The notes under the pieces: generated by a model
Database searches by the model: none
What the model was told of the DNA's origin: nothing
Seen by the model: only the letters and a program-made list of their open reading frames with translations
From: an uncultured Pelagibacteraceae bacterium
GTDB taxonomy: Bacteria > Pseudomonadota > Alphaproteobacteria > Pelagibacterales > Pelagibacteraceae
Length of the DNA stretch: 32,000 nucleotides
Assembly (NCBI GenBank): GCA_902528545.1
Contig: CABZTB010000003.1
Span: forward strand, 47,433-79,432
Direction of reading: 5' to 3'
In this document: positions 330-10,786 of the stretch, piece by piece
Layout: each line of letters opens with the position of its first letter
Position numbering within the stretch: position 1 is the first letter of the stretch
Position numbers and translations under genes: made by a program

Positions 330-1742
330 ATGAAAAAATTCTTAGGCATAATTTTTCTGGGACTAATATTAAACAATAATGCTTTTGCTGGACCATATGA
401 AAGTTTGATAAAATTTAATAGATGGCTAAGCTTAAATGGTTATGATCAGTATTTAGATAAAACAGGAGATCCTGTTGATATGGTGCTTGATAGATCGCTT
501 TGTACATCTGAGGCAACTTGGGACGAATGTGTTGGAGCTGATGGAAAATTAATACCAACCAAAGATCGTAAATACACTCTAATTTATCCAAATAATTTAG
601 ATGTAAAAATAATGAAAAGGGGAGGTGGAAACGAAATAAATTATCAAGCCAATCCTAATTTTGGCACTTTACTCTTTTATGTTTTCCATTACTTAGAGGA
701 TATAAAAGGATTTGGTAAATATTTAGTACAACCATCTAAAAATCCAATTAAATTCAAATCAAATTTAATAGATGATAAAATTGTAAAAAAACAATTACAA
801 ACAAAAGCAATTCTAAGTTATCTTTATTTTGAAAATGATGAAATCATTGTTGATGAAATTTCACCTAAGGATCGTTTTGGTATTATCTTTAAAAATGATA
901 CTAAATGGAGTTCCATGTCGATGGGTAAAAGCTTAGTTTCTTACGTGACAGGTCATGCAATTTGTGGCGGTTATATTGATAGTATTGATACAACATTAAA
1001 CGACTGGCCTTTGATCAAGAACACTCTCTATTCTAAAAAAAAATTAATTGATATTCTAAACATGGCTGCTGGAGATCAACAATATGTTGATGATCATGAT
1101 GGATTAAAAAAGACTGGAAGATGGTACAATAGCTTTCCTATATCTGCTTTTGCTGATTTAGAATTAAAAGATTCAGAACCATCTAATTCTAAAAAGTATC
1201 ATTATAATGGTTTAGCAACAAATATTATAATGAACTATGTAATTTACAAAACTGATAAAGATTTTCAAAAACTTTTAAATGAAATTTTTCAAAAAAAAGC
1301 CAAAGTAGAAAATAGTGTATTTTTTTTAAAACAAAAAGGAATTTCAGATAAGCAAGGTCCAGGAAGATATTCATTTAGAGCTAGTAGATATGATTATCTA
1401 AGAATTGCAAAAGCAATCATGGATGATTATCAAAATGATACTTGTGTAGGTAAATATTTAAAAGAAATTCATGAAAGGAGAATTAAAAAAAATTTAAAAA
1501 AAGGACACGAACCTGGCTTTAATCTCTCGAGTACTTATGGTGGACAATTTCATATGGATTATCCAGGTCTAAAAAATAGGGTAGTTTTTGGTTTAGGAGG
1601 TTTTGGTGGTCAGGCGATTTTGATTGATGTGGAAAATTCAAGAATAGTTGTTCTAAATTCTTTGCATTATAATAACAAGAAATTCAAATATAATGTTAAA
1701 AAACTTTTATTAGATCCAATAAAAAACGGAAGATTAAATTAA
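330..1742 (+). CDS. Secreted serine hydrolase, beta-lactamase/PBP-related fold
   Basis: 470 aa. N-terminal signal peptide MKKFLGIIFLGLILNNNAFA|GP. SxxK-type motif in SMSMGKSLVSYVTGHAI. YHYNGLATNII resembles the YxN region. C-terminal GLGGFGGQAILIDVENSRIVVLNS resembles the third conserved box of class C-like hydrolases. Confidence 0.55.
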   Translation: MKKFLGIIFLGLILNNNAFAGPYESLIKFNRWLSLNGYDQYLDKTGDPVDMVLDRSLCTSEATWDECVGADGKLIPTKDRKYTLIYPNNLDVKIMKRGGGNEINYQANPNFGTLLFYVFHYLEDIKGFGKYLVQPSKNPIKFKSNLIDDKIVKKQLQTKAILSYLYFENDEIIVDEISPKDRFGIIFKNDTKWSSMSMGKSLVSYVTGHAICGGYIDSIDTTLNDWPLIKNTLYSKKKLIDILNMAAGDQQYVDDHDGLKKTGRWYNSFPISAFADLELKDSEPSNSKKYHYNGLATNIIMNYVIYKTDKDFQKLLNEIFQKKAKVENSVFFLKQKGISDKQGPGRYSFRASRYDYLRIAKAIMDDYQNDTCVGKYLKEIHERRIKKNLKKGHEPGFNLSSTYGGQFHMDYPGLKNRVVFGLGGFGGQAILIDVENSRIVVLNSLHYNNKKFKYNVKKLLLDPIKNGRLN

Positions 1743-1755
1743 AAAAATTTACTTA
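1731..1755 (+). repeat. Third copy of the core module (agattaaattaaaaaaatttactta)
   Basis: 23/25 identical to 3384-3408 (agataaaataaaaaaaatttactta). It overlaps the last three codons and the stop of the hydrolase ORF. Confidence 0.6.
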
Positions 1756-1773
1756 ATAATATTTATTCGAACC

Positions 1774-1791
1774 AGAGCATGACTAGAGCAT
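1774..1791 (+). repeat. Tandem word pair agagcat-gact-agagcat (11-bp period) upstream of the pilin gene
   Basis: agagcat at 1774-1780 and 1785-1791. It sits exactly 22 nt after the ctta of the junction, the same spacing as the word pair at 2356. Confidence 0.55.
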
Positions 1792-1813
1792 AGAGTGATG
1801 GTATAACAATGTT

Positions 1814-2314
1814 ATGAAACAAAAAGGTTTCACCCTAATAGAACTCCTAGTCGTAGTAGCCATCATTGGTATCCTTGCTGCAGTAGGAGTGGTTGTTTAT
1901 AATGGGTATACGAGTAATGCTAAAAATGCAGTTCTTAAAAATAATCATAAAACAATAATAAAAATGATTAAGGAAGATTTTGTTAAATGTGAAATTGAAG
2001 GAAAACTTGATAGATTTGTTTGGAGCAGTGGTGCAGTTAAAGAATATACAAACTGTACCCTCGCTTTTGATCAAGGTATTTTACAACAACATTTTTTTTT
2101 CGTCGGATTAAAAGACCCAATCTTTGTTAGACCTAGCGCTTGGGGAAATAGGAAAGTTATGGATTCAGGTGCCTTATGGGCTGGATCTCCAAGTGGTTCA
2201 TATAAAATAGGAAAAACTTTTGTTGAAAGTAGTTGGACTAATTTAAAAATCACAACATATATGACTGATGGGGTAACAAAATTAGAAGATAACTTAATAG
2301 TACCAAATAATTGA
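1814..2314 (+). CDS. Type IV pilin / pseudopilin-like protein with a prepilin-peptidase (class III) signal
   Basis: 166 aa. N-terminus MKQKG|FTLIELLVVVAIIGILAAVGVVVY is the canonical G/FTLIE cleavage and methylation motif plus hydrophobic helix. Variable C-terminal globular part has two Cys. Confidence 0.8.
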   Translation: MKQKGFTLIELLVVVAIIGILAAVGVVVYNGYTSNAKNAVLKNNHKTIIKMIKEDFVKCEIEGKLDRFVWSSGAVKEYTNCTLAFDQGILQQHFFFVGLKDPIFVRPSAWGNRKVMDSGALWAGSPSGSYKIGKTFVESSWTNLKITTYMTDGVTKLEDNLIVPNN

Positions 2315-2355
2315 ATTATTTTTATTGGAAAATCTTAATAATTAATTTTCAGATT
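2315..2355 (+). repeat. L module copy 1 (ATTATTTTTATTGGAAAAT + related tail)
   Basis: 19 nt at 2315-2333 are identical to 3586-3604. The following ~20 nt (cttaataattaattttcagatt) are about 65% identical to 3605-3624. Weaker similarity (8/12) extends 12 nt leftward. Confidence 0.7.
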
Positions 2356-2387
2356 CTCGGATCATTCTCGGATCTAGATAGATAAAT
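2356..2387 (+). repeat. Left bracket of the DUF4268 cassette: ctcggatc-att-ctcggatc + tagat + agataaat
   Basis: ctcggatcattctcggatct is identical to 3360-3379 and is followed by the shared agataaa core. The 8-mer repeats at 11-bp period. Confidence 0.8.
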
Positions 2388-2412
2388 TTATGATACATTA
2401 ATATAAAAAATT

Positions 2413-3354
2413 ATGGTTTCGAGACTTAAAAAACAAAAAATAAGAGATATCTGGAAAACAGAAGATAAAGACTTTACTCCATGGTTGGTTCAAAATATTG
2501 CACTTCTTAATGAAGATTTAGGCTTGAATATTCAAGATCCTGAAAGTGAAAAAAAGTTAGATACTTTCAAAGTAGATATCGTGGCTGAAGATGATCAAGG
2601 AAAAGTTATAATTGAAAATCAGTTTGAAAAATCTGATCACGATCATTTAGGAAAATTATTAACTTACATAAGTAACGTAGAAAATACTAAAAAAGCAATT
2701 TGGATTGTAGAAGATGTAAAACCAGAACATCACAGAGCAATAGAATGGCTTAATGCTAATGTAAAAACGTGCTTATTTTTTTTAGTGAAAATTCAAGTTT
2801 TTAAAATAAAGGATAGTGAGCCAGGAGCTCAATTCTTTTTATTATCAGGACCAGATGAAAATATTACGAAGGTTGGAAAAATTAAGGAAGAGGACTCAGA
2901 AAAAGAAAAAATTAAATTTAATTTTTGGTCAGCCTTTTATGAAAAATTAAAACAAAAAAGTAATATTTATAGTAACACAGCTCCAAAGGGCAGAAATTAT
3001 ATGGGTGTAAGTGCTGGGGTAAGAGGGGTCAACTACCTTGTTGCTGCAATGAACAGATCTGGCCAAGTAGAAATCTACATTGATAGAGGAAAAGAAGAGG
3101 GCAAAGAGGCAAATTTAAAAATTTATAATCATTTGGAGAAACATAAATCATCTATTGAAAAAGATTTTGGAAATGAATTAGAATGGAAAAGACTAGATGA
3201 CTCTAGGGCTTGTAGAATAGCATTTAAATCTGATTTAGGTGGTTTCCAAGATGAAGACACATGGGAGGATATTCACAATTTTCTAGTAGATCATTTGATA
3301 AAACTAGAAAAAGCTTTTAAAGGACCGATAAAAGAATTAGATAGGATTTTATAG
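2413..3354 (+). CDS. PD-(D/E)xK nuclease-like N-terminal domain fused to a DUF4268-like C-terminal domain
   Basis: 313 aa. FKVDIVAEDDQGKVIIENQFEKSDHDHLGKLLTY fits a D...E-x-Q/K restriction-endonuclease-fold core. C-terminal FNFWSAFYEKLKQK... resembles DUF4268 as I remember it. Not verified by HMM. Confidence 0.5.
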   Translation: MVSRLKKQKIRDIWKTEDKDFTPWLVQNIALLNEDLGLNIQDPESEKKLDTFKVDIVAEDDQGKVIIENQFEKSDHDHLGKLLTYISNVENTKKAIWIVEDVKPEHHRAIEWLNANVKTCLFFLVKIQVFKIKDSEPGAQFFLLSGPDENITKVGKIKEEDSEKEKIKFNFWSAFYEKLKQKSNIYSNTAPKGRNYMGVSAGVRGVNYLVAAMNRSGQVEIYIDRGKEEGKEANLKIYNHLEKHKSSIEKDFGNELEWKRLDDSRACRIAFKSDLGGFQDEDTWEDIHNFLVDHLIKLEKAFKGPIKELDRIL

Positions 3355-3357
3355 GAT
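3341..3357 (+). repeat. R module copy 1 (ATAGGATTTTATAGGAT)
   Basis: 17/17 identical to 7385-7401. It is internally atagga repeated at 10-bp period. It supplies the last codons and the TAG stop of the DUF4268-like ORF. Confidence 0.75.
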
Positions 3358-3359
3358 CC

Positions 3360-3392
3360 CTCGGATCATTCTCGGATCTGGGGAGATAAAAT
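3360..3392 (+). repeat. Right bracket of the DUF4268 cassette: ctcggatc-att-ctcggatc + tgggg + agataaaat
   Basis: Direct repeat of 2356-2387: 20 nt identical, 4-5 nt divergent, then the shared core. Confidence 0.8.
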
Positions 3393-3501
3393 AAAAAAAA
3401 TTTACTTATTCATCTTGTTCAATTATAAATATTGGCATAAACACTCATGAAATTCATTAATGCCCTCGTGGTGAAATTGGTAGACACAAAGGACTTAAAA
3501 T
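3383..3501 (+). repeat. Left copy of the 119-bp direct repeat (core + tRNA-Leu upstream region + 5' 40 nt of tRNA-Leu)
   Basis: Ungapped alignment with 7427-7545 gives 113/119 identities by my count. Four of the six mismatches cluster in the 10 nt just upstream of the tRNA 5' end. Confidence 0.9.
3462..3501 (+). pseudogene. Truncated tRNA-Leu(UAA) copy: acceptor 5' strand, D-arm, anticodon 5' stem and loop only
   Basis: gccctcgtggtgaaattggtagacacaaaggacttaaaat is identical to 7506-7545. Identity stops one nt past the anticodon loop. No variable arm, T-arm or 3' acceptor strand follows. Confidence 0.9.
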
Positions 3502-3523
3502 AGTTTGAATTGAGGAATTTCAG

Positions 3524-3550
3524 AGTCTCTTATAGTCTCTAATAGTCTTA
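3524..3550 (+). repeat. Three tandem words agtctct / agtctct / agtctta at 10-bp period
   Basis: Copies at 3524-3530, 3534-3540 and 3544-3550, beginning 23 nt after the tRNA-fragment breakpoint. Confidence 0.7.
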
Positions 3551-3585
3551 ATCCCTTATAATCCTAGAACTTTCTAAATCGTTGG

Positions 3586-3624
3586 ATTATTTTTATTGGA
3601 AAATATGAATAATAAATTCTGTTA
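3586..3624 (+). repeat. L module copy 2
   Basis: 3586-3604 is identical to 2315-2333. The tail atgaataataaattctgtta is related to 2334-2355. Confidence 0.7.
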
Positions 3625-3659
3625 AACTAGTAGCAAACTAGTAGTCAGAGAGATAAAAT
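3625..3659 (+). repeat. Left bracket of the 3-gene cassette: aactagtag-caa-actagtag + tcagag + agataaaat
   Basis: 33/35 identical to 7402-7436. The 8-mer actagtag repeats at 11-bp period. The core ends 5 nt before the ATG at 3665. Confidence 0.85.
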
Positions 3660-3664
3660 TTTAT

Positions 3665-5188
3665 ATGTTTGATTTTCTCAAAAACAATAAGTGGATTAAA
3701 TATTATGATGAAATTAAATCATATTTTAACCCAAGATTTTTAATTGATGCAATCATTCCTACAGATATCATTGATACAGCAAAAACAGTAGCAAGCAACA
3801 AATCAGAAGACCAAATATTTAGATTTATAATAGGGTGTGCAATAGTTAGAGGAATACTTATTGCAATTCCTGGAGATGTAGCTGTTGGATTATATATTGC
3901 CCAAGCTATTGATTTTGCAATGGCAGCTAACATAGCAAGACTAGTTGGTTTAGATTTTAAAAAAGAAAATATTTTTAAGTTGTTAGGAGCTGCAAGTCTT
4001 TCTGCAGTTGCTGTGCTTTATGCGTTTGAAAAAGTTTTAAATATTATATTTAAATTCGTAGCTAATTTACCAATTGCGGCACCAGCTTCATTTATTTCTA
4101 CTACAATTACTTCATTGTTTTTGGGTTTTTTTTGTTTTCTCGCTTTTACTGAAATTAAAAATAGTGGTAACAAAAAACTTAAAATACTATCTGTTGGAAA
4201 AATAGCTAAAAACGCATCTACCTTTACTTATAAAATCGGTAAAAATCTAATGACTTTGCTATTTAAAGATATGCCAGGACTTTTCAATCAAGTGAAAGAA
4301 AATGTTAAATCTTTTATGCAGCTAAACATTGACTATAAAAAAAAAATTAAGGGAGAATTTTTTTTTGCTGCAAGTATGGCTTATTTATTAGACGGAAAGA
4401 CACAAAGTTTTGATGGTCCTATAAGTCAAATGTGGCTGGATGCTTGGAGAATGTCGTATACCAATAAATTAGGCCCTGATGCCTCGATTGAAGATATTAA
4501 AAATTTAGCACAACAGTATCAGCCTGAGCAAATGCCTGGTGTTGAGAATTTGGTACAATCAAAATTTTATGAAATTTTGGAGGAAAACTATGAAAATATG
4601 GATGGAGATAATTGGTCAGCAAAACTTTTTACTGATCCGTCACATCCTGCTACTGATGTAAGATTTTATAACTCCGAGACTAATCAAACTTATGAAGTAA
4701 ACTACAAACTAACTGATGACTCTGAATATATTGAGCACCATTTAGAAAAATATCCTGATACACCAGTTGTAACTTCACCTGAAACAGCAGAGAAAATGAA
4801 TAATCCATTAGTCACCGGAGGTCAGTATGAAACTAAAGAAGTTATTAAATTATCAGATGATAATTTTATGAAATTATTAAATTCAAAACATTCACTTTAT
4901 TTGCAAGAGGGGGCCGCAGCAGCAGGTATTATTGTGCTATCAATTTATTTATTTCCTTTTTTCGTTCATTACTTCAAAGAAAATATTGATAGAGAACAAT
5001 TTATGTTAGCTGTTAAGAAATTTGTACCAGATGTTACTACCAAAACATTAAATAGAATAATAATGCTTACACTTATGGGGCCTATTTTTGGATGGTTTTT
5101 ATTAGCAAGATTTTTATTAAATATATCAACCCACGAAAGTGATAATGTTAAAGATATAAAGCAATTATTTTATAAACCCTTAGTATGA
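3665..5188 (+). CDS. Multi-pass membrane protein of unknown function (N-terminal DUF697-like region, central soluble domain, C-terminal TM hairpin)
   Basis: 507 aa. Hydrophobic segments at about aa 52-95, 105-125, 133-165, 415-437 and 465-487. ILIAIPGDVAVGLYIAQAIDFAMAANIARLVGL recalls the DUF697/YcjF-type motif (from memory, unverified). About 230 aa of central hydrophilic domain has no motif I recognise. Confidence 0.6.
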   Translation: MFDFLKNNKWIKYYDEIKSYFNPRFLIDAIIPTDIIDTAKTVASNKSEDQIFRFIIGCAIVRGILIAIPGDVAVGLYIAQAIDFAMAANIARLVGLDFKKENIFKLLGAASLSAVAVLYAFEKVLNIIFKFVANLPIAAPASFISTTITSLFLGFFCFLAFTEIKNSGNKKLKILSVGKIAKNASTFTYKIGKNLMTLLFKDMPGLFNQVKENVKSFMQLNIDYKKKIKGEFFFAASMAYLLDGKTQSFDGPISQMWLDAWRMSYTNKLGPDASIEDIKNLAQQYQPEQMPGVENLVQSKFYEILEENYENMDGDNWSAKLFTDPSHPATDVRFYNSETNQTYEVNYKLTDDSEYIEHHLEKYPDTPVVTSPETAEKMNNPLVTGGQYETKEVIKLSDDNFMKLLNSKHSLYLQEGAAAAGIIVLSIYLFPFFVHYFKENIDREQFMLAVKKFVPDVTTKTLNRIIMLTLMGPIFGWFLLARFLLNISTHESDNVKDIKQLFYKPLV

Positions 5189-5203
5189 GGCTACTTTTAA
5201 AAC

Positions 5204-5845
5204 ATGAAAATTAAGAACAAGAAACTATATAGAATAGATTTTAAACATAGCAAATCCACATGTAATTATGATGAGCATGATGATTATGATGAAATATATG
5301 GAAAGGCTGTAATTGATGAAGGAGATGACAATACTGAAAATTACGTTGATGCAGGTTTAATTGAAGCTTATTTTTTAAACGTAGAGGACATAAAAGAACC
5401 GGTTCATTTTTTATTAGACTCAATATCTGGTGATCATGAGCGTCTAGCTAAATATTTTGACGATGAAAATAAAATTAACGATAAAATTAGAAAATTACTC
5501 AAATTGAGCGAAGAGGATGTTAGAATGATGAGTCTAAATTTTCTCTATATTCATAAATTAAAAGTTTTAAAAAAGTACAGAGGATTAGGAATAGGAAAAA
5601 CCTTAATGCAAGCTATGATAAATGATTATAAAAGAGATAGTTCTCTTGCTTTTTTAATTGCTGCACCCTTGCAATTTAGTGGACGAGAAATAAACGATGA
5701 TCCCAGTGCTCAAGAAAGTTTTAACAATAGAACTGAAGCCCAATCAAGAAAGAAACTTATAGAGTTATATGAGAGTTATGGTTTTTTAAAGATACCTGGT
5801 GGTGAAGGTGATATGGTAGCTTATATTGGAGATTGGTTTTTTTAA
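5204..5845 (+). CDS. GNAT-family N-acetyltransferase with an acidic N-terminal extension
   Basis: 213 aa. LYIHKLKVLKKYRGLGIGKTLMQAMI is the GNAT motif A (R-x-x-G-x-G) acetyl-CoA loop. KLIELYESYGFLKI is motif-B-like. It starts 15 nt after the membrane-protein stop. Confidence 0.7.
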   Translation: MKIKNKKLYRIDFKHSKSTCNYDEHDDYDEIYGKAVIDEGDDNTENYVDAGLIEAYFLNVEDIKEPVHFLLDSISGDHERLAKYFDDENKINDKIRKLLKLSEEDVRMMSLNFLYIHKLKVLKKYRGLGIGKTLMQAMINDYKRDSSLAFLIAAPLQFSGREINDDPSAQESFNNRTEAQSRKKLIELYESYGFLKIPGGEGDMVAYIGDWFF

Positions 5846-7351
5846 CTACAAGTTAAAAGGTTTTAATTTAGCCTGGACAGTTGGTCTAGTTATACTAATA
5901 CCTTCATCATTAAGTTTTAAAGCTATATTTTTGTAAGAGAAACCATCTTTTCTCATCTCTTTAATCAAAGAGATATGCTCTTTATTTAGATTAACGAAAT
6001 AGGGTGTTTTAAAATTATTTTTTTTTGCGTATCTATCAAATTGACTCCTGCTAATTGGTTTGAATTTTTTTGAAAAATCTTTTCTAATATTTGCAAAAAG
6101 TCTTTGTTTTTTAATTTCCTTTTCTAAAAATTTTTTTTCTTTTTTTGTTAAATTAATGTGTTTATATTCCTTATTTCTTAAATTTGGGTTATTTCCATCT
6201 GGATATAAATAGAAAAATAATTCTTTAAATTTTTCTCCAGTAACAACGTTTGAAATGTGTGAGGGGATTACTTTTAATTTTGAAGCAATGGTGTCATATT
6301 TTAATCCATCATTATACATTTTATGTATATTAAAAGCTATTTTCTCTCTAGTCTTAATCATTTTAAGTGGAAAATTATTATTTGTTTTTGAAACTTTCTT
6401 AAAATTACCATGATTAATTATTGAATTTATTTTTTCTCTTATATTCTCTCTATAATCAATTCTAATTAATTTAATTTTTTTTAATTGAGCATATTTTTCC
6501 TTTTCTTTGTCTCTTTTCTTAATTTTCAATAACTCTATTTTTCCATTCCCTTTTTTATTTGCCCAATGTTTTGTTGTAGTATGTTGTTCACCATCTATTT
6601 CTATAAAAATTATATTTCCTTTTTTTTCTTTAATTACGATATCAATATAATGAACATTTCCTTTATATTTAATCTGTTGTTCTATTTCAAAAGGAATTCC
6701 TAAACTATGTAAAGCGTGATAAGCTATTAGTTCATATTTAGAGGCATTACAAAAACTACATTTAACACCTCTTGTTATTTTATTAATATTTTTCTCATGA
6801 ACCTTATGCCACTCATGTATATTACATTTGACTGAGTACTTTTCGTTAGATTTGTATTTTTTATCTTTTTTGATATTTACCGCATTAACGAACCCATTTG
6901 AATAATGATTGACTAACTTTATGATTTGTTTTCCAGTTTTGGGTTTATTAAGTTTACATGTCCCACAACCTCTTCCTTGCAAATGAATTTCATATTTTTG
7001 TTTATAATTCCCATTATGAGTAGGACAAAAATAAGTGATGAAGTTTTTTGAACCTTTATATTTAAAATTTGGGTATTGGTAGAAACTATTATGAACTTTG
7101 CTCAATCTTTCTACATGTTCCTTATTAGTAAGATTGAGATTATTACACTTTGAACAAAATGGGTTCTTTCTAAAGTTAGACATTCCCTGAATATTTTCGT
7201 GATTTTCTGAACAATGAAATTTGATTTTCCAAACTTTACCTTTTCCAGATTTTAGATGAAGTGCATCAATAAATTTCCATTTGAGCTTCTTCTTTTTGCA
7301 TTTAGATATAAATTCTTCTTTAATTTGAGCTATGTTTCTTAAACTTCTCAT
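5846..7351 (-). CDS. Zn-ribbon x3 + Vsr/DUF559-like (PD-(D/E)xK) endonuclease + tandem HTH modules; homing-endonuclease-like architecture
   Basis: 501 aa. Three C-x2-3-H-x14-18-C-x2-C units (aa 46-69, 108-132, 176-201). SKYELIAYHALHSLGIPFEIEQQIKYKGNVHYIDIVIKEKKGNIIFIEIDGEQH...KKRDKEKEKY...IKLIRIDY matches the Vsr/DUF559 pattern. HTH-like DGLKYDTIASKLKVIPSHISNVVTG and DGFSYKNIALKLNDEGISITRPTVQAKL. Confidence 0.65.
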   Translation of the reverse strand: MRSLRNIAQIKEEFISKCKKKKLKWKFIDALHLKSGKGKVWKIKFHCSENHENIQGMSNFRKNPFCSKCNNLNLTNKEHVERLSKVHNSFYQYPNFKYKGSKNFITYFCPTHNGNYKQKYEIHLQGRGCGTCKLNKPKTGKQIIKLVNHYSNGFVNAVNIKKDKKYKSNEKYSVKCNIHEWHKVHEKNINKITRGVKCSFCNASKYELIAYHALHSLGIPFEIEQQIKYKGNVHYIDIVIKEKKGNIIFIEIDGEQHTTTKHWANKKGNGKIELLKIKKRDKEKEKYAQLKKIKLIRIDYRENIREKINSIINHGNFKKVSKTNNNFPLKMIKTREKIAFNIHKMYNDGLKYDTIASKLKVIPSHISNVVTGEKFKELFFYLYPDGNNPNLRNKEYKHINLTKKEKKFLEKEIKKQRLFANIRKDFSKKFKPISRSQFDRYAKKNNFKTPYFVNLNKEHISLIKEMRKDGFSYKNIALKLNDEGISITRPTVQAKLKPFNL

Positions 7352-7384
7352 AATAATAAGTTTACAAAATTATTATTTATATAA

Positions 7385-7401
7385 ATAGGATTTTATAGGA
7401 T
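7385..7401 (+). repeat. R module copy 2 (ATAGGATTTTATAGGAT)
   Basis: Identical to 3341-3357. Here it is intergenic, upstream of the minus-strand nuclease start. Confidence 0.75.
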
Positions 7402-7436
7402 AACTAGTAGCAAACTAGTAGCCACAGAGATAAAAT
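7402..7436 (+). repeat. Right bracket of the 3-gene cassette: aactagtag-caa-actagtag + ccacag + agataaaat
   Basis: 33/35 identical to 3625-3659. Confidence 0.85.
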
Positions 7437-7545
7437 AAAAAAATTTTACTTATTCCTCTTGTTCAATTATAAATATTGGCATAAACACTCATGAAAATAA
7501 CTCATGCCCTCGTGGTGAAATTGGTAGACACAAAGGACTTAAAAT
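7427..7545 (+). repeat. Right copy of the 119-bp direct repeat (core + tRNA-Leu upstream region + 5' 40 nt of the intact tRNA-Leu)
   Basis: See 3383-3501. Confidence 0.9.
7446..7487 (+). promoter_or_regulatory. Candidate tRNA-Leu promoter region (duplicated at 3402-3443)
   Basis: Two sigma70-like readings are possible: ttactt-16-tataaa (7446-7473) or ttgttc-17-taaaca (7459-7487). Both lie 20-35 nt upstream of the tRNA 5' end. AT-rich context makes this weak. Confidence 0.3.
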
Positions 7546-7591
7546 CCTTGCCGCTTGCGGAGTGCCAGTTCGAGTCTGGCCGAGGGCACCA
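7506..7591 (+). tRNA. tRNA-Leu (anticodon UAA), class II with long variable arm, CCA encoded
   Basis: Manual fold. Acceptor gccctcg/cgagggc. Anticodon stem aagga/tcctt with loop cttaaaa. Variable arm gccgcttgcggagt. T-arm gccag-ttcgagt-ctggc. Ends in acca. Confidence 0.95.
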
Positions 7592-9348: not shown

Positions 9349-9434
9349 GGAGGGGTTCCAGAGCGGTCAAATGGGGCGGGCTGTAAACCCGTTGACTTCG
9401 GTCTTCGAAAGTTCGAATCTTTCCCCCTCCACCA
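9349..9434 (+). tRNA. tRNA-Tyr (anticodon GUA), long variable arm, CCA encoded
   Basis: Acceptor ggagggg/cccctcc. Anticodon loop ctgtaaa. Variable arm tgacttcggtcttc. T-loop ttcgaat. Confidence 0.95.
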
Positions 9435-9478
9435 TTCAATAGTTTTAAGCAATACTGGAGTGTTACTCTTGGGGTTGT

Positions 9479-9552
9479 GCGGGTGTAGTTCAATGGTAGA
9501 ACGCTAGCCTTCCAAGCTGGATGTAAGGGTTCGATTCCCTTTACCCGCTCCA
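9479..9552 (+). tRNA. tRNA-Gly (anticodon UCC), CCA encoded
   Basis: gcgggtgtagttcaatggtagaacgctagccttccaagctggatgtaagggttcgattccctttacccgctcca. Anticodon loop is cttccaa. Confidence 0.95.
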
Positions 9553-9595
9553 AGAAAAATAGTTTATTAAAAAATAAAAGTGAGGAATATAAGTA

Positions 9596-10786
9596 ATGTC
9601 AAAAGAAAAATTTGTTAGAAATAAACCGCATTGTAACATCGGAACAATCGGTCACGTCGATCATGGTAAAACAACTTTAACTGCTGCGATCACTAAAGTT
9701 TTATCTGAAACTGGTGGTGCTCAGGCTGTAGCATATGATCAAATTGATAAAGCGCCAGAGGAGAAAGAAAGAGGGATTACAATTTCAACAGCACACGTTG
9801 AATATGAAACTGAAAAAAGACACTATGCGCACGTAGATTGTCCAGGTCACGCTGACTATGTGAAGAATATGATTACAGGTGCAGCACAAATGGATGGTGC
9901 GATTTTAGTTGTTAACGCTGCTGATGGTCCTATGCCTCAAACAAGAGAGCATATTCTATTAGCAAGACAAGTTGGTGTTCCTGCTATCTGTGTTTATTTA
10001 AATAAAGTTGATCAGGTTGATGATAAAGAAATGATTGATCTTGTCGAAGAGGAGATTAAAGAATTATTAACTTCGTATAAATTTCCAGGTGACAAAACTC
10101 CAATCGCTAAAGGTTCTGCACTTGCAGCAGTTGAAGGTAGAGATGATGAAATTGGAAAAAATTCAATTCTAGAGTTGATGAAGAATGTTGATGAATTTAT
10201 TCCACAACCAGATAGACCAAAAGATAAAGATTTCTTGATGCCAGTAGAGGATGTTTTCTCAATCTCAGGAAGAGGTACAGTTGCAACTGGAAGAGTTGAG
10301 TCAGGTATACTTAAAACTGGTGATGAGCTTGAGATAGTAGGTATTAGAGAAACTAAAAAATCTGTCTGTACTGGTGTTGAAATGTTCAGAAAACTTTTAG
10401 ACTCTGGTGAAGCTGGTGATAACGTTGGTGTACTTTTAAGAGGTGTAGAAAGAACTGATATTGAAAGAGGACAAGTTCTTTGTAAACCAGGTTCTGTTAC
10501 ACCACATACTAAATTTGAAGCTCAAGCTTATGTATTAAAAAAAGAGGAAGGTGGAAGACATACGCCTTTTTTTACAAAGTACAGACCTCAATTCTATTTC
10601 AGAACTACAGATGTAACTGGAGAAGTAGAGTTACCGGCTGGTACCGAAATGGTTATGCCTGGTGATGACGCTAAATTTACAGTTAAATTAATTACGCCAA
10701 TCGCGATGTCAGAGAAATTAAACTTTGCTATTCGTGAAGGTGGAAGAACTGTCGGAGCTGGAGTAGTAACTAAAATTATAGAGTAA
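9596..10786 (+). CDS. tuf: Translation elongation factor Tu
   Basis: 396 aa. [18 protein letters not shown] and NKVD GTPase motifs, with full-length EF-Tu similarity. Confidence 0.98.

Follow-up and report, generated by a model that had tools for sequence, protein, structure and literature searches.

A putative free-standing zinc-finger and Vsr-like endonuclease, probably a selfish passenger at one end of a Pelagibacteraceae gene cassette lacking an integrase

The window analyzed here, a 32,000-nucleotide stretch of DNA from an uncultured Pelagibacteraceae bacterium, carries a nuclease gene (P0001; 5846..7351, minus strand) that starts with ATG, encodes a free-standing protein of 501 amino acids, and is present as a single copy in the genome. 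Its stop codon abuts that of a convergent gene encoding a GNAT acetyltransferase (5204..5845, plus strand). On the other side, a 33-nt leader (7352..7384, minus strand) extends from the start codon to the right cassette junction (7385..7436), which lies outside the gene and comprises the R module ATAGGATTTTATAGGAT (7385-7401), the doubled word AACTAGTAGCAAACTAGTAGC (7402-7422), and the core GAGATAAAAT (7427-7436), all on the plus strand. The word and core of this junction are repeated at the left end of the cassette (3625-3659). A tRNA-Leu(taa) gene with its upstream region follows (7437..7591, plus strand), and the segment 7382-7545 is duplicated at 3338-3501. The leader was kept together with a 73%-identical homolog in another cassette, and positions 7354-7408 of the window matched L007-L012 at 83.6% in blastn. 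The nuclease gene has the lowest G+C content of its cassette (24.8% vs. 29.6-30.4% in its neighbors). A scan for promoters and terminators identified none upstream of the gene, and an Rfam search in its vicinity yielded no intron RNA or other family. The dN/dS ratios (NG86) of 0.12-0.24 against six homologs, with dS near saturation, place the gene under purifying selection.

An earlier sequence-only reading of this DNA had described three C-x2-3-H...C-x2-C repeats followed by a nuclease motif, and both observations were borne out, with the ligands and the motif invariant or nearly so in an alignment of 16 homologs that extends down to 27% identity. The ligand patterns of the three repeats are C47-x3-H51-x14-C66-x2-C69, C109-x2-H112-x16-C129-x2-C132, and C176-x2-H179-x18-C198-x2-C201. 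Ten of these 12 ligands (C47, C66, C69, C109, H112, C129, C132, C176, C198, and C201) do not vary at all, and the other two, H51 and H179, reach at least 90% conservation, which goes far beyond chance. Zinc module 1 (residues 36-72; 7136..7246, minus strand) has conserved ligands and is modeled as strands with a short helix. Zinc module 2, together with a preceding helix and a Y-x-Y motif (residues 87-135; 6947..7093, minus strand), likewise has conserved ligands and is the repeat unit of the superfamily; residues ~66-140 match 10,296 cluster representatives, as many as 15 times in a single protein. Zinc module 3 (residues 165-204; 6740..6859, minus strand) combines ligand conservation with coverage by the phrog_9084 profile. 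DUF4379 was detected in 4 of the 16 homologs (best E value, 8.5e-12) and DUF723 in one (2.1e-12), and a precomputed DUF723 assignment was found on 16 of the 20 matches of the homolog search.

The zinc modules lead into a predicted restriction-endonuclease-fold, Vsr/EDxHD-like domain (residues 203-320; 6392..6745, minus strand), for which AlphaFold modeled an alpha-beta-beta-beta-alpha-beta arrangement of the restriction endonuclease type (pLDDT, 91). Its motif reads E224...D237...E251-x-D253-G-x-x-H257...D281-x-x-K284...R297, and E224, D237, E251, D253, G254, H257, D281, K284, and R297 are all invariant among the homologs. In a Foldseek search of the PDB with the domain-only model, the top matches were all restriction-endonuclease-fold proteins, including I-Bth0305I (3r3p_B; TM, 0.55, target-normalized; probability, 0.80; E value, 0.21) and, scoring above it, R2 RLE (the best match, 7.6e-3), TnsA, and Exo5; Vsr was absent from the top 50 of this search. 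The same search with the full-length model was uninformative (best E value, 0.07), phmmer and hmmsearch searches of PDB chains returned no match, whether started from the single protein or from the full or the domain alignment, and no solved structure matched P0001 at an E value of ≤1e-3. The proposed Vsr/DUF559-like core stood in part. Its motif, its predicted fold, and a recurrent weak match to MTES_1575 (16.8 bits, E value of 0.0074 in P0001; in 9 of the 16 homologs, best E value of 1.9e-4) argue for it. However, the MTES_1575 matches always remained under the curated cut-off (38.2 bits), DUF559 gave zero match to P0001, and in hhalign the domain alignment showed no significant similarity to E. 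coli Vsr (probability, 0.1). Genome-wide HMM searches with DUF559 and MTES_1575 likewise did not register the gene. The order and spacing of D237, E251, H257, and D281 resemble the composite catalytic motif of the EDxHD (I-Bth0305I/Vsr) family, in which a metal-binding Asp, a conserved Glu at the Vsr F62 position, a His general base, and a neighboring Asp come together, a correspondence by pattern and not by significant alignment.

The C-terminus was predicted to form three small helical bundles, and the helix-turn-helix (HTH) modules proposed there, although plausible from the model, are the least secure part of the observation. Module 1 (residues 335-382; 6206..6349, minus strand) is an HTH-like unit of four modeled helices, with a Pfam HTH_38 match at 342-370 (E value, 0.0056; best among homologs, 1.7e-4). 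Module 2 (residues 403-444; 6020..6145, minus strand) is modeled as a three-helix bundle for which no family match was found. Module 3 (residues 457-499; 5855..5983, minus strand; IALKLNDEGISITRPTV) is HTH-like in the model and in weak profile matches, namely DUF6471 at 464-496 (E value, 0.014) and, in some homologs, HTH_7 and Arg_repressor. HTH_Tnp_Tc5 likewise matched the C-terminus of some homologs. The HTH-like character of the two segments originally described thus received weak Pfam support, but the bundles number three rather than two. Taken as a whole, P0001 appears to be a DNA-cutting enzyme that joins a triplet of zinc fingers to a nuclease core of the Vsr type and to additional HTH modules.

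Profile and structure searches tied residues 1-320 of P0001 strongly to phage homing endonucleases. The PHROG profiles phrog_559 (E value, 2.2e-27; residues 14-336), phrog_681 (3.5e-8), and phrog_9084 ("homing endonuclease"; 8e-8; residues 165-319) matched the protein, and the annotation on the profiles matching at 2e-27 and 8e-8 is (homing) endonuclease. Foldseek against viral models gave 188 matches at ≤1e-3, the top ones being phage "treble clef zinc finger," "homing endonuclease," and "Group I intron-associated VSR homing endonuclease" proteins. Phage homing-endonuclease models aligned over ~320 columns (1e-9 to 1e-15), and the "VSR homing endonuclease" model matched at 8.7e-10 across the zinc modules and the nuclease. 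An NCBIfam search returned nothing, and Pfam, PHROG, and NCBIfam revealed no tyrosine or serine recombinase, DDE, or HUH domain in P0001; one homolog had a chance-level "Recombinase" match (E value, 0.026). The design that the sequence-only reading had recognized, a nuclease carrying small DNA-binding modules in the manner of homing endonucleases, is supported by the PHROG profiles, the phage models, and the domain layout reported for a phage family (PMC12350094).

The gene is rare. None of the 605 other genomes searched (200 of the family, 5 array-bearing genomes of the genus, and 400 of the phylum) yielded a homolog, which makes 1 of 606 genomes when its own is counted, and intact copies of 57-97% identity occur in at least eight different metagenomic contexts. 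No close homolog was found in sequenced phages or IMG/VR contigs: tblastn against the former gave zinc-module matches only, in Vibrio phages, and the latter contained only distant nuclease-domain relatives. A region-restricted homolog search added no diversity. In four independent cassettes (those of the window, L007, L040, and L013), the gene adjoins the target-proximal word-core junction in either orientation. The expectation that homologs would sit beside such junctions or tRNA-Leu was borne out in part, at the junctions of these four cassettes; only the cassette lineage of the window (the window and L049) places the gene at tRNA-Leu. The nuclease is the sole gene of the L007 cassette. In L044, it directly follows a phage-type integrase gene (PF00589; 1e-26) and lies between the copies of a 37-nt direct repeat that originates from the 3′ end of the integrase gene. 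In L052, the flanks are kept (GNAT, 91% at the nucleotide level; R module and word, 92%), and an Mrr-type gene occupies the nuclease slot; this allele without the nuclease represents a replacement by the Mrr-type gene and not a clean empty site. GNAT homologs in two complete relatives lie in unrelated contexts that provided no empty site. P0019 adjoins an Mrr gene.

The surrounding junctions point to a phage-related crossover site. Positions 3459-3501 match the attP core of HTVC105P, a pelagiphage that bears an integrase, at 100% identity, and the displaced copies of the target stop within the anticodon loop of the tRNA, exactly where this attP core also ends; experiments have shown that such phages integrate at this site (bioRxiv 10.1101/410191). 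A derivation of the cassettes as simple copies of the HTVC105P attP was rejected because the attP arms lack the R and L modules and the words of the cassettes. The same junction architecture, with private doubled words, is present in relatives that lack the nuclease gene and in whose cassettes the only genes are those for metabolism, transport, pilins, or restriction-modification (R-M). A similar word (AACTAGAAG) brackets an R-M cassette (L030). A specificity of the words for the nuclease was rejected on the grounds that L052 carries the same word, and this R-M cassette a similar one, without the nuclease.

We lean toward the interpretation that P0001 is an endonuclease with site specificity that belongs to the zinc-finger-repeat and Vsr/EDxHD-like homing class, a free-standing and selfish cargo of a cassette array built by another activity; the analysis shows how the protein is built, which residues are conserved, its family relationship, and where the gene occurs, and from these we infer that it is catalytically active, chooses specific targets, and homes. 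Zinc modules of the treble-clef type, three in all toward the N-terminus, and two to three HTH-like bundles toward the C-terminus would lay the protein along a long DNA site, and the central restriction-endonuclease-fold domain would cut through a Vsr-type active site in which, by analogy with Vsr and I-Bth0305I, D237, E251, D253, and D281 may bind metal and H257 may act as the general base. The gene is a self-contained unit of ~1.54 kb (5846-7384) with its own leader; it is rare, foreign to the cassette, and recurs across many unrelated contexts, and it behaves like selfish cargo settled at the target-proximal edge of the integrase-less cassette, in the slot that separates the final cargo gene from the conserved R module. 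The array itself would owe its assembly to a different activity, for which the likeliest candidate is a trans-acting tyrosine integrase of the phage type that works at the tRNA-Leu anticodon loop. The nuclease gene is rare and probably selfish cargo at the cassette edge, not the array builder.

P0001 could instead be a defense nuclease, the main rival reading, directed against phages or satellites and carried, alone or in association with GNAT, by a defense island; it would cut invading DNA and not further its own spread, and we regard this as a real but minority possibility. The cassette neighbors fit defense equally well: a DUF4268 ORF matches PADLOC PDC-S11 at 4.9e-105, a 507-aa ORF matches PDC-M72B at 1e-10, and Mrr genes occur as alternatives. 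The PDC-S11 candidate, a likely nuclease-type defense protein encoded by the neighboring cassette, also argues against the earlier suggestion that P0001 is the only DNA-active enzyme in the island. Related cassettes pair the same GNAT family with a 785-aa Mrr_cat protein (L050 and L052) or a 3xDUF4379 protein (L051), which looks like effector swapping; P0019 beside its Mrr gene and the R-M genes in other cassettes of relatives point the same way. A weak match to PADLOC PDC-S68 (2.8e-4) covers residues 203-268 of the nuclease core, but this sole match falls short of most of the protein, and the PADLOC search matched no validated system. Moreover, the nuclease gene is not in an operon with the GNAT gene, since the two are convergent and the former has its own leader, and most homologs have no GNAT neighbor at all. 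The closest characterized or annotated relatives are homing endonucleases, and a protein with five to six putative sequence-specific DNA-binding modules should recognize a target that is long and rare, as homing enzymes, more than restriction enzymes, typically do.

A rather improbable variant is that a homing endonuclease parasitizes the cassette system, with the conserved cargo/R-module boundary common to every cassette of this type as its target, and spreads between cassettes and to integrase-proximal att regions of phage-like elements. Such targeting would explain the junction-adjacent position, the occurrence in either orientation, and the whole-gene swaps in the slot (nuclease vs. Mrr). 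As a related possibility, the nuclease might be a weapon in conflicts between integrase-less cassettes and helper phages.

It is very unlikely that P0001 is instead the engine of the cassette, reading the phased words or an empty L-word-core-promoter site and thereby moving or maintaining the cassette, as the sequence-only reading had proposed. The gene does adjoin the word-core junction in four independent cassettes, a position usual for integrase genes, its leader and R module are co-conserved with it in the window and L007, and no tyrosine recombinase was detected in this genome (91% complete). These observations are outweighed in our assessment by the arrays that share these junction modules and have private doubled words in genomes without a homolog, by the Mrr swap in L052, and by the coincidence of the displaced target copies with the attP core of the integrase-bearing HTVC105P; conservative integration would also be beyond a hydrolytic nuclease alone. 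Word recognition by the nuclease finds no support either, given the same word with its R module in L052 and the near-identical word around an R-M cassette, neither with the nuclease. Least probable of all is a domesticated or inactive derivative serving as a DNA-binding regulator, for example of the cassette or neighboring genes, with a core that no longer cuts: it would suit the many DNA-binding modules, the R module and words upstream of the nuclease gene, and the repressor role of CapR, the founding member of this zinc-finger type, but the putative catalytic residues are all invariant in homologs down to 27-36% identity and under purifying selection.

Taken as a free-standing homing-type endonuclease, P0001 represents a subfamily that is bacterial, borne on a cassette, and equipped with an HTH extension at the C-terminus, and so enlarges the zinc-finger/Vsr-like homing endonucleases, a very large family (~10,000 cluster representatives) that is barely characterized and none of whose zinc-finger members is known to have been studied biochemically. 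With so many independent modules for reading DNA, it is a candidate for a modular nuclease with long sites. The recurrent att-proximal edge position ties selfish nucleases to gene turnover in the defense and surface islands of a streamlined, Pelagibacter-like marine bacterium, and the construction of the cassette array is left unexplained by the nuclease gene.

Among known systems, the Pfam REase_MTES_1575/DUF559/DUF2726 families share the motif hhD...hhhExDGxxH...D..(R/K)...L...G..hhR with P0001, for which the REase_MTES_1575 scores all fall under the curated cut-off and DUF559 goes undetected. The EDxHD prototype I-Bth0305I (PMC3239194; PDB 3r3p) resembles P0001 in its fusion of DNA-binding modules to the nuclease and may share with it the Vsr-type restriction-endonuclease fold predicted for P0001, and D237, E251, H257, and D281 are ordered, judged by pattern, like Vsr D51, the position of F62, H69, and D97. 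However, I-Bth0305I has N-terminal NUMOD/HTH motifs and zero zinc fingers, and its structural similarity to P0001 is moderate, whereas sequence similarity is undetectable. Vsr-like free-standing endonucleases are also known from "fractured genes," and free-standing marine members exist (PMC2677866). The GIY-YIG/T5orf172 homing endonucleases of ICP1 and other phages, whose genes are located at genetic-exchange boundaries, similarly carry repeated, exchangeable zinc-finger DNA-binding modules (CapR/DUF723/DUF4397), but their catalytic domain is not Vsr-like as in P0001 (bioRxiv 10.1101/2023.03.23.533998). Modules of this kind are what P0001 matched in Vibrio phages by tblastn. The closest counterpart is found in phage group I and II introns, whose homing endonuclease genes encode three to five CapR/DUF4379/DUF723-like domains and then an EDxHD/Vsr-like domain (PMC12350094, NAR 2025); the same 2025 paper describes such zinc-finger and Vsr-like proteins as forming a large outgroup to the homing endonucleases of the Vsr type (PMC12350094). 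Residues 1-320 of P0001 have the same domain order and type, with three ~60-aa zinc modules, related to CapR/DUF4379/DUF723, followed by a ~100-aa nuclease whose Vsr/EDxHD-like character is suggested by the model, and the gene is free-standing with presence/absence polymorphism. P0001 differs in lying outside introns, in a bacterial integrase-less cassette beside tRNA-Leu, and in having 180 extra residues after the nuclease, so that this domain is not C-terminal. P0001 is a variant of a recently recognized phage homing endonuclease family; its zinc and Vsr-like architecture is already known, and its novelty is the 180-residue C-terminal helical (HTH-like) extension.

The 501-aa putative nuclease P0001 is encoded by an ORF at 5846-7351 on the minus strand, which is single-copy in a genome of 1.11 Mb (24 contigs, ~30% G+C). 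Marine metagenomes contain 20 homologues ranging from close to moderate, which share 27-97% identity and are almost all 501-515 aa long. Across an alignment of 16 sequences, the ligands of the three zinc modules of P0001 (pattern C-x2-3-H-x14-18-C-x2-C; C47/H51/C66/C69, C109/H112/C129/C132, and C176/H179/C198/C201) and the nuclease residues E224, D237, E251, D253, G254, H257, D281, K284, and R297 were invariant or at least 90% conserved, and the motifs noticed in the sequence-only reading are therefore real and conserved. The AlphaFold model (pLDDT, 82 for the whole protein and 91 for residues 203-320) comprised an N-terminal part with three small zinc modules rich in strands, an alpha-beta-beta-beta-alpha-beta core, and a C-terminus of three helical bundles (335-382, 403-444, and 457-499). 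The helix-turn-helix label for these bundles is weak, being drawn from weak Pfam matches (HTH_38, DUF6471, HTH_7, and Arg_repressor) and low-probability fold matches (LuxR-type, paired-domain, and resolvase HTHs).

The P0001 gene sits within a cassette array upstream of tRNA-Leu(taa) (window 1700-7545). The right end of each cassette consists of ATAGGATTTTATAGGAT, a private doubled word of ~11 nt, GAGATAAAAT, and a copy of the region upstream of tRNA-Leu together with the first 40 nt of that gene, and each left end consists of phased words, the TTGGATTATTTTTATTGG module, and the same private word and core. The query region was matched in all 40 sampled genus genomes, and the fragment carrying the promoter and 5′ 40 nt of tRNA-Leu was present in 2-5 copies in several of the genus genomes. 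Two relatives (L028, G217:C5:50500-68000; L030, G236:C3:133000-143000) showed the same architecture, with a separate doubled word enclosing each clearly bounded cassette. This word (~11 nt, private to the cassette) and a GAGAT(A)AAAT core occurred at both ends of such cassettes, and the displaced tRNA half was followed by an R module (ATAGGATTTTATAGGAT) and an L module (TTGGATTATTTTTATTGG), both constant, and by a set of phased 10-nt words. Their cargo included methyltransferase, carbamoyltransferase, transporter, acyltransferase, restriction-modification (R-M), and pilin/protease genes. No integrase was found within the arrays examined, and none of the five array-bearing genus genomes, including these two, carried a P0001 homologue. 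At the tRNA-Thr gene neighboring the array, 50-nt fragments of the 3′ part were repeated several times in relatives (for example, G217:C5:70645-71931 and G233:C6:54899-58914), indicating a second, classical 3′-tRNA integration hotspot ~1 kb away.

The displaced tRNA fragments stop in the anticodon loop, the same endpoint as that of the attP core of pelagiphage HTVC105P (L031 2501-2543), which lies between the phage integrase and RNA polymerase genes, just after the integrase. Window 3459-3501 (43 nt) was 100% identical to this core, with a second match at 7503-7545, and such pelagiphages have been shown experimentally to integrate in the 5′ part of tRNA-Leu(TAA) (bioRxiv 10.1101/410191). The simplest explanation for the array is thus recombination of the tyrosine-integrase type, with the activity provided in trans. 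The R/L modules and words of the cassettes were absent from the HTVC105P phage arms, and PF00589 (Phage_integrase) had no match in the whole genome bearing the window (91% complete). A 325-aa tyrosine recombinase gene was present once in each of three of the five array-bearing relatives (L053-L055); in G236, the sole relative with both placed on one contig, it lies ~90 kb from the array.

Homologues of the nuclease were found in several other contexts. In L007-L012 (73% protein identity), it is the only gene of a cassette with the same leader and R module as in the window and a related word; the insertion point of this cassette is the 5′ end of a gene for a small protein, not a tRNA gene. In L040-L042 (43%), where the nuclease gene has the opposite orientation, its stop is immediately followed by the R module, a doubled word, the core, and the 5′ end of the same small target gene (MNKENASKLWK.IQEAGDYLVGQLPDHPNHPKGRNPYAHVAI...; L007 1200-1600 and 3060-3360; L040 4833-5027). 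At these sites, the element brings a replacement promoter and a 5′ coding part of ~66 nt, and a truncated displaced copy remains on the opposite side; because of these insertions, the cassette type (R module, doubled word, and core) targets more than tRNA genes. The L040 element, which bears the homologue P0018, also encodes MarR-like and DnaD_N-like proteins and a second homing-endonuclease-like protein (406-2004, minus strand; 532 aa; phrog_559, 2e-62; three DUF4379 fingers), a gene set that looks phage- or satellite-like. In L013 (57%), a doubled word and GAGAT come after the nuclease stop, and then a stretch resembling a promoter and the 5′ part of a different tRNA. In L044 (68%; GCA_001757045.1, contig MDTC01221570.1, 1100-2900), the nuclease gene comes after a phage-type integrase, and a 37-nt repeat derived from the 3′ end of the integrase lies on both of its sides. 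The order is a complete 329-aa tyrosine integrase, the displaced C-terminal fragment of a second (…SGHKDVRMLFRYTHLKAEDILRKL*), the nuclease, and a further 37-nt copy, a layout that is the trace of an insertion or recombination at the 3′ end of the integrase gene. The word ACGTAATT lies on both sides of the ORF in L038. In L003 (35%; G+C-rich contig), the phased words CGCTAAT (three copies) and ACAGGAT (three copies) adjoin the nuclease gene, with CTCTGAT (two copies) in the same stretch (9400-9600). The ACAGGAT words resemble the two ATAGGAT copies of the R module, and this contig, with sulfatase and PSCyt genes, looks planctomycete- or verrucomicrobium-type.

The P0001 gene was not detected in the 200 family, 5 genus, and 400 phylum genomes searched, has a G+C content 5 points under that of its neighbors, evolves under purifying selection, and is not within an intron. 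Together with its many DNA-reading modules and annotated relatives, these features tip our judgment toward a free-standing homing-type endonuclease, an activity that we infer. No clean empty site for the nuclease was seen among the cassettes compared. That P0001 is instead a defense nuclease is the main alternative, possible though rather unlikely, and is favored by its surroundings. The adjacent single-gene cassette encodes a DUF4268 protein (2413-3354, plus strand) whose full length matches the PADLOC phage-defense candidate PDC-S11 (E, 4.9e-105), and a 507-aa membrane ORF (3665-5188, plus strand) resembles the PADLOC candidate PDC-M72B (1e-10; residues 258-385). The family of the GNAT acetyltransferase encoded at 5204-5845 (plus strand) is also followed by varied partners in related cassettes (L050 800-3802; L052 1-2708; L051 380-1807), either a 785-aa protein whose C-terminal domain is an Mrr_cat restriction endonuclease, with the stop and start codons overlapping, or a 251-aa protein consisting of three DUF4379 zinc fingers. 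GNAT and an exchangeable nuclease or DNA-binding partner may thus form a two-gene module.

The tie of the nuclease to the cassettes holds only in part: the contexts of L007-L012, L040-L042, L013, L044, L038, and L003 make it repeatedly the target-proximal gene, adjoining that junction, but three cassettes speak against a causal role. It is very improbable that the nuclease is the cassette engine or reader of the words, as had been proposed, since L052, with the same GNAT gene (91% nucleotide identity), R module, and word, holds the Mrr_cat gene in its slot, L049, a metagenomic copy of the cassette (97% identical) with GNAT and nuclease genes only, precisely lacks the 507-aa ORF (window 3664 joined to 5197), and an R-M cassette bears the word AACTAGAAG. 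The unit that differs is bounded by the GNAT stop codon (5845/5846) on one side and the R module (7384/7385) on the other.

P0001 itself gave only sub-threshold Pfam matches; among its homologues, REase_MTES_1575 was matched in 9 of 16, DUF4379 ('treble clef zinc finger') in 4 (best, 8.5e-12), DUF2726 in 2, and DUF723 in 1 (2e-12). Of the PHROG profiles, phrog_559 matched strongly (2.2e-27; residues 14-336), and phrog_9084 'homing endonuclease' matched residues 165-319 (8e-8). Among predicted viral structures, 188 matched at 1e-3 or below, the top matches being phage 'treble clef zinc finger', 'homing endonuclease', and 'Group I intron-associated VSR homing endonuclease' proteins of ~300-340 aa aligned over ~320 columns. 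The isolated nuclease domain matched no solved structure at 1e-3; its matches were all restriction-endonuclease-fold proteins, led by R2 RLE (7.6e-3; probability, 0.98) and including TnsA, Exo5, AF1548, Cas4, and Card1, with I-Bth0305I at a TM-score of 0.55 (E, 0.21) and the comparison of P0001 with E. coli Vsr lacking significance. The Vsr-specific label draws on the motif pattern, predicted-structure matches, and literature, the solved Vsr-type structures having given no significant alignment. Earlier work has defined the EDxHD/Vsr-like family, including the residues used for catalysis (PMC3239194; PMC2677866), and Barth et al. (bioRxiv 10.1101/2023.03.23.533998) show that in phage homing endonucleases the zinc-finger repeats serve as modular domains for DNA binding. 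An exhaustive search (E ≤ 1e-3) related 10,296 cluster representatives to P0001, most of them matching at the repeat unit (residues ~66-140), which occurs as many as 15 times in one protein, and only a handful reached the C-terminal 180 residues of P0001. Given these published accounts, P0001 belongs to an already known nuclease class, a classification settled by the literature, and its C-terminal helical extension is what sets it apart.
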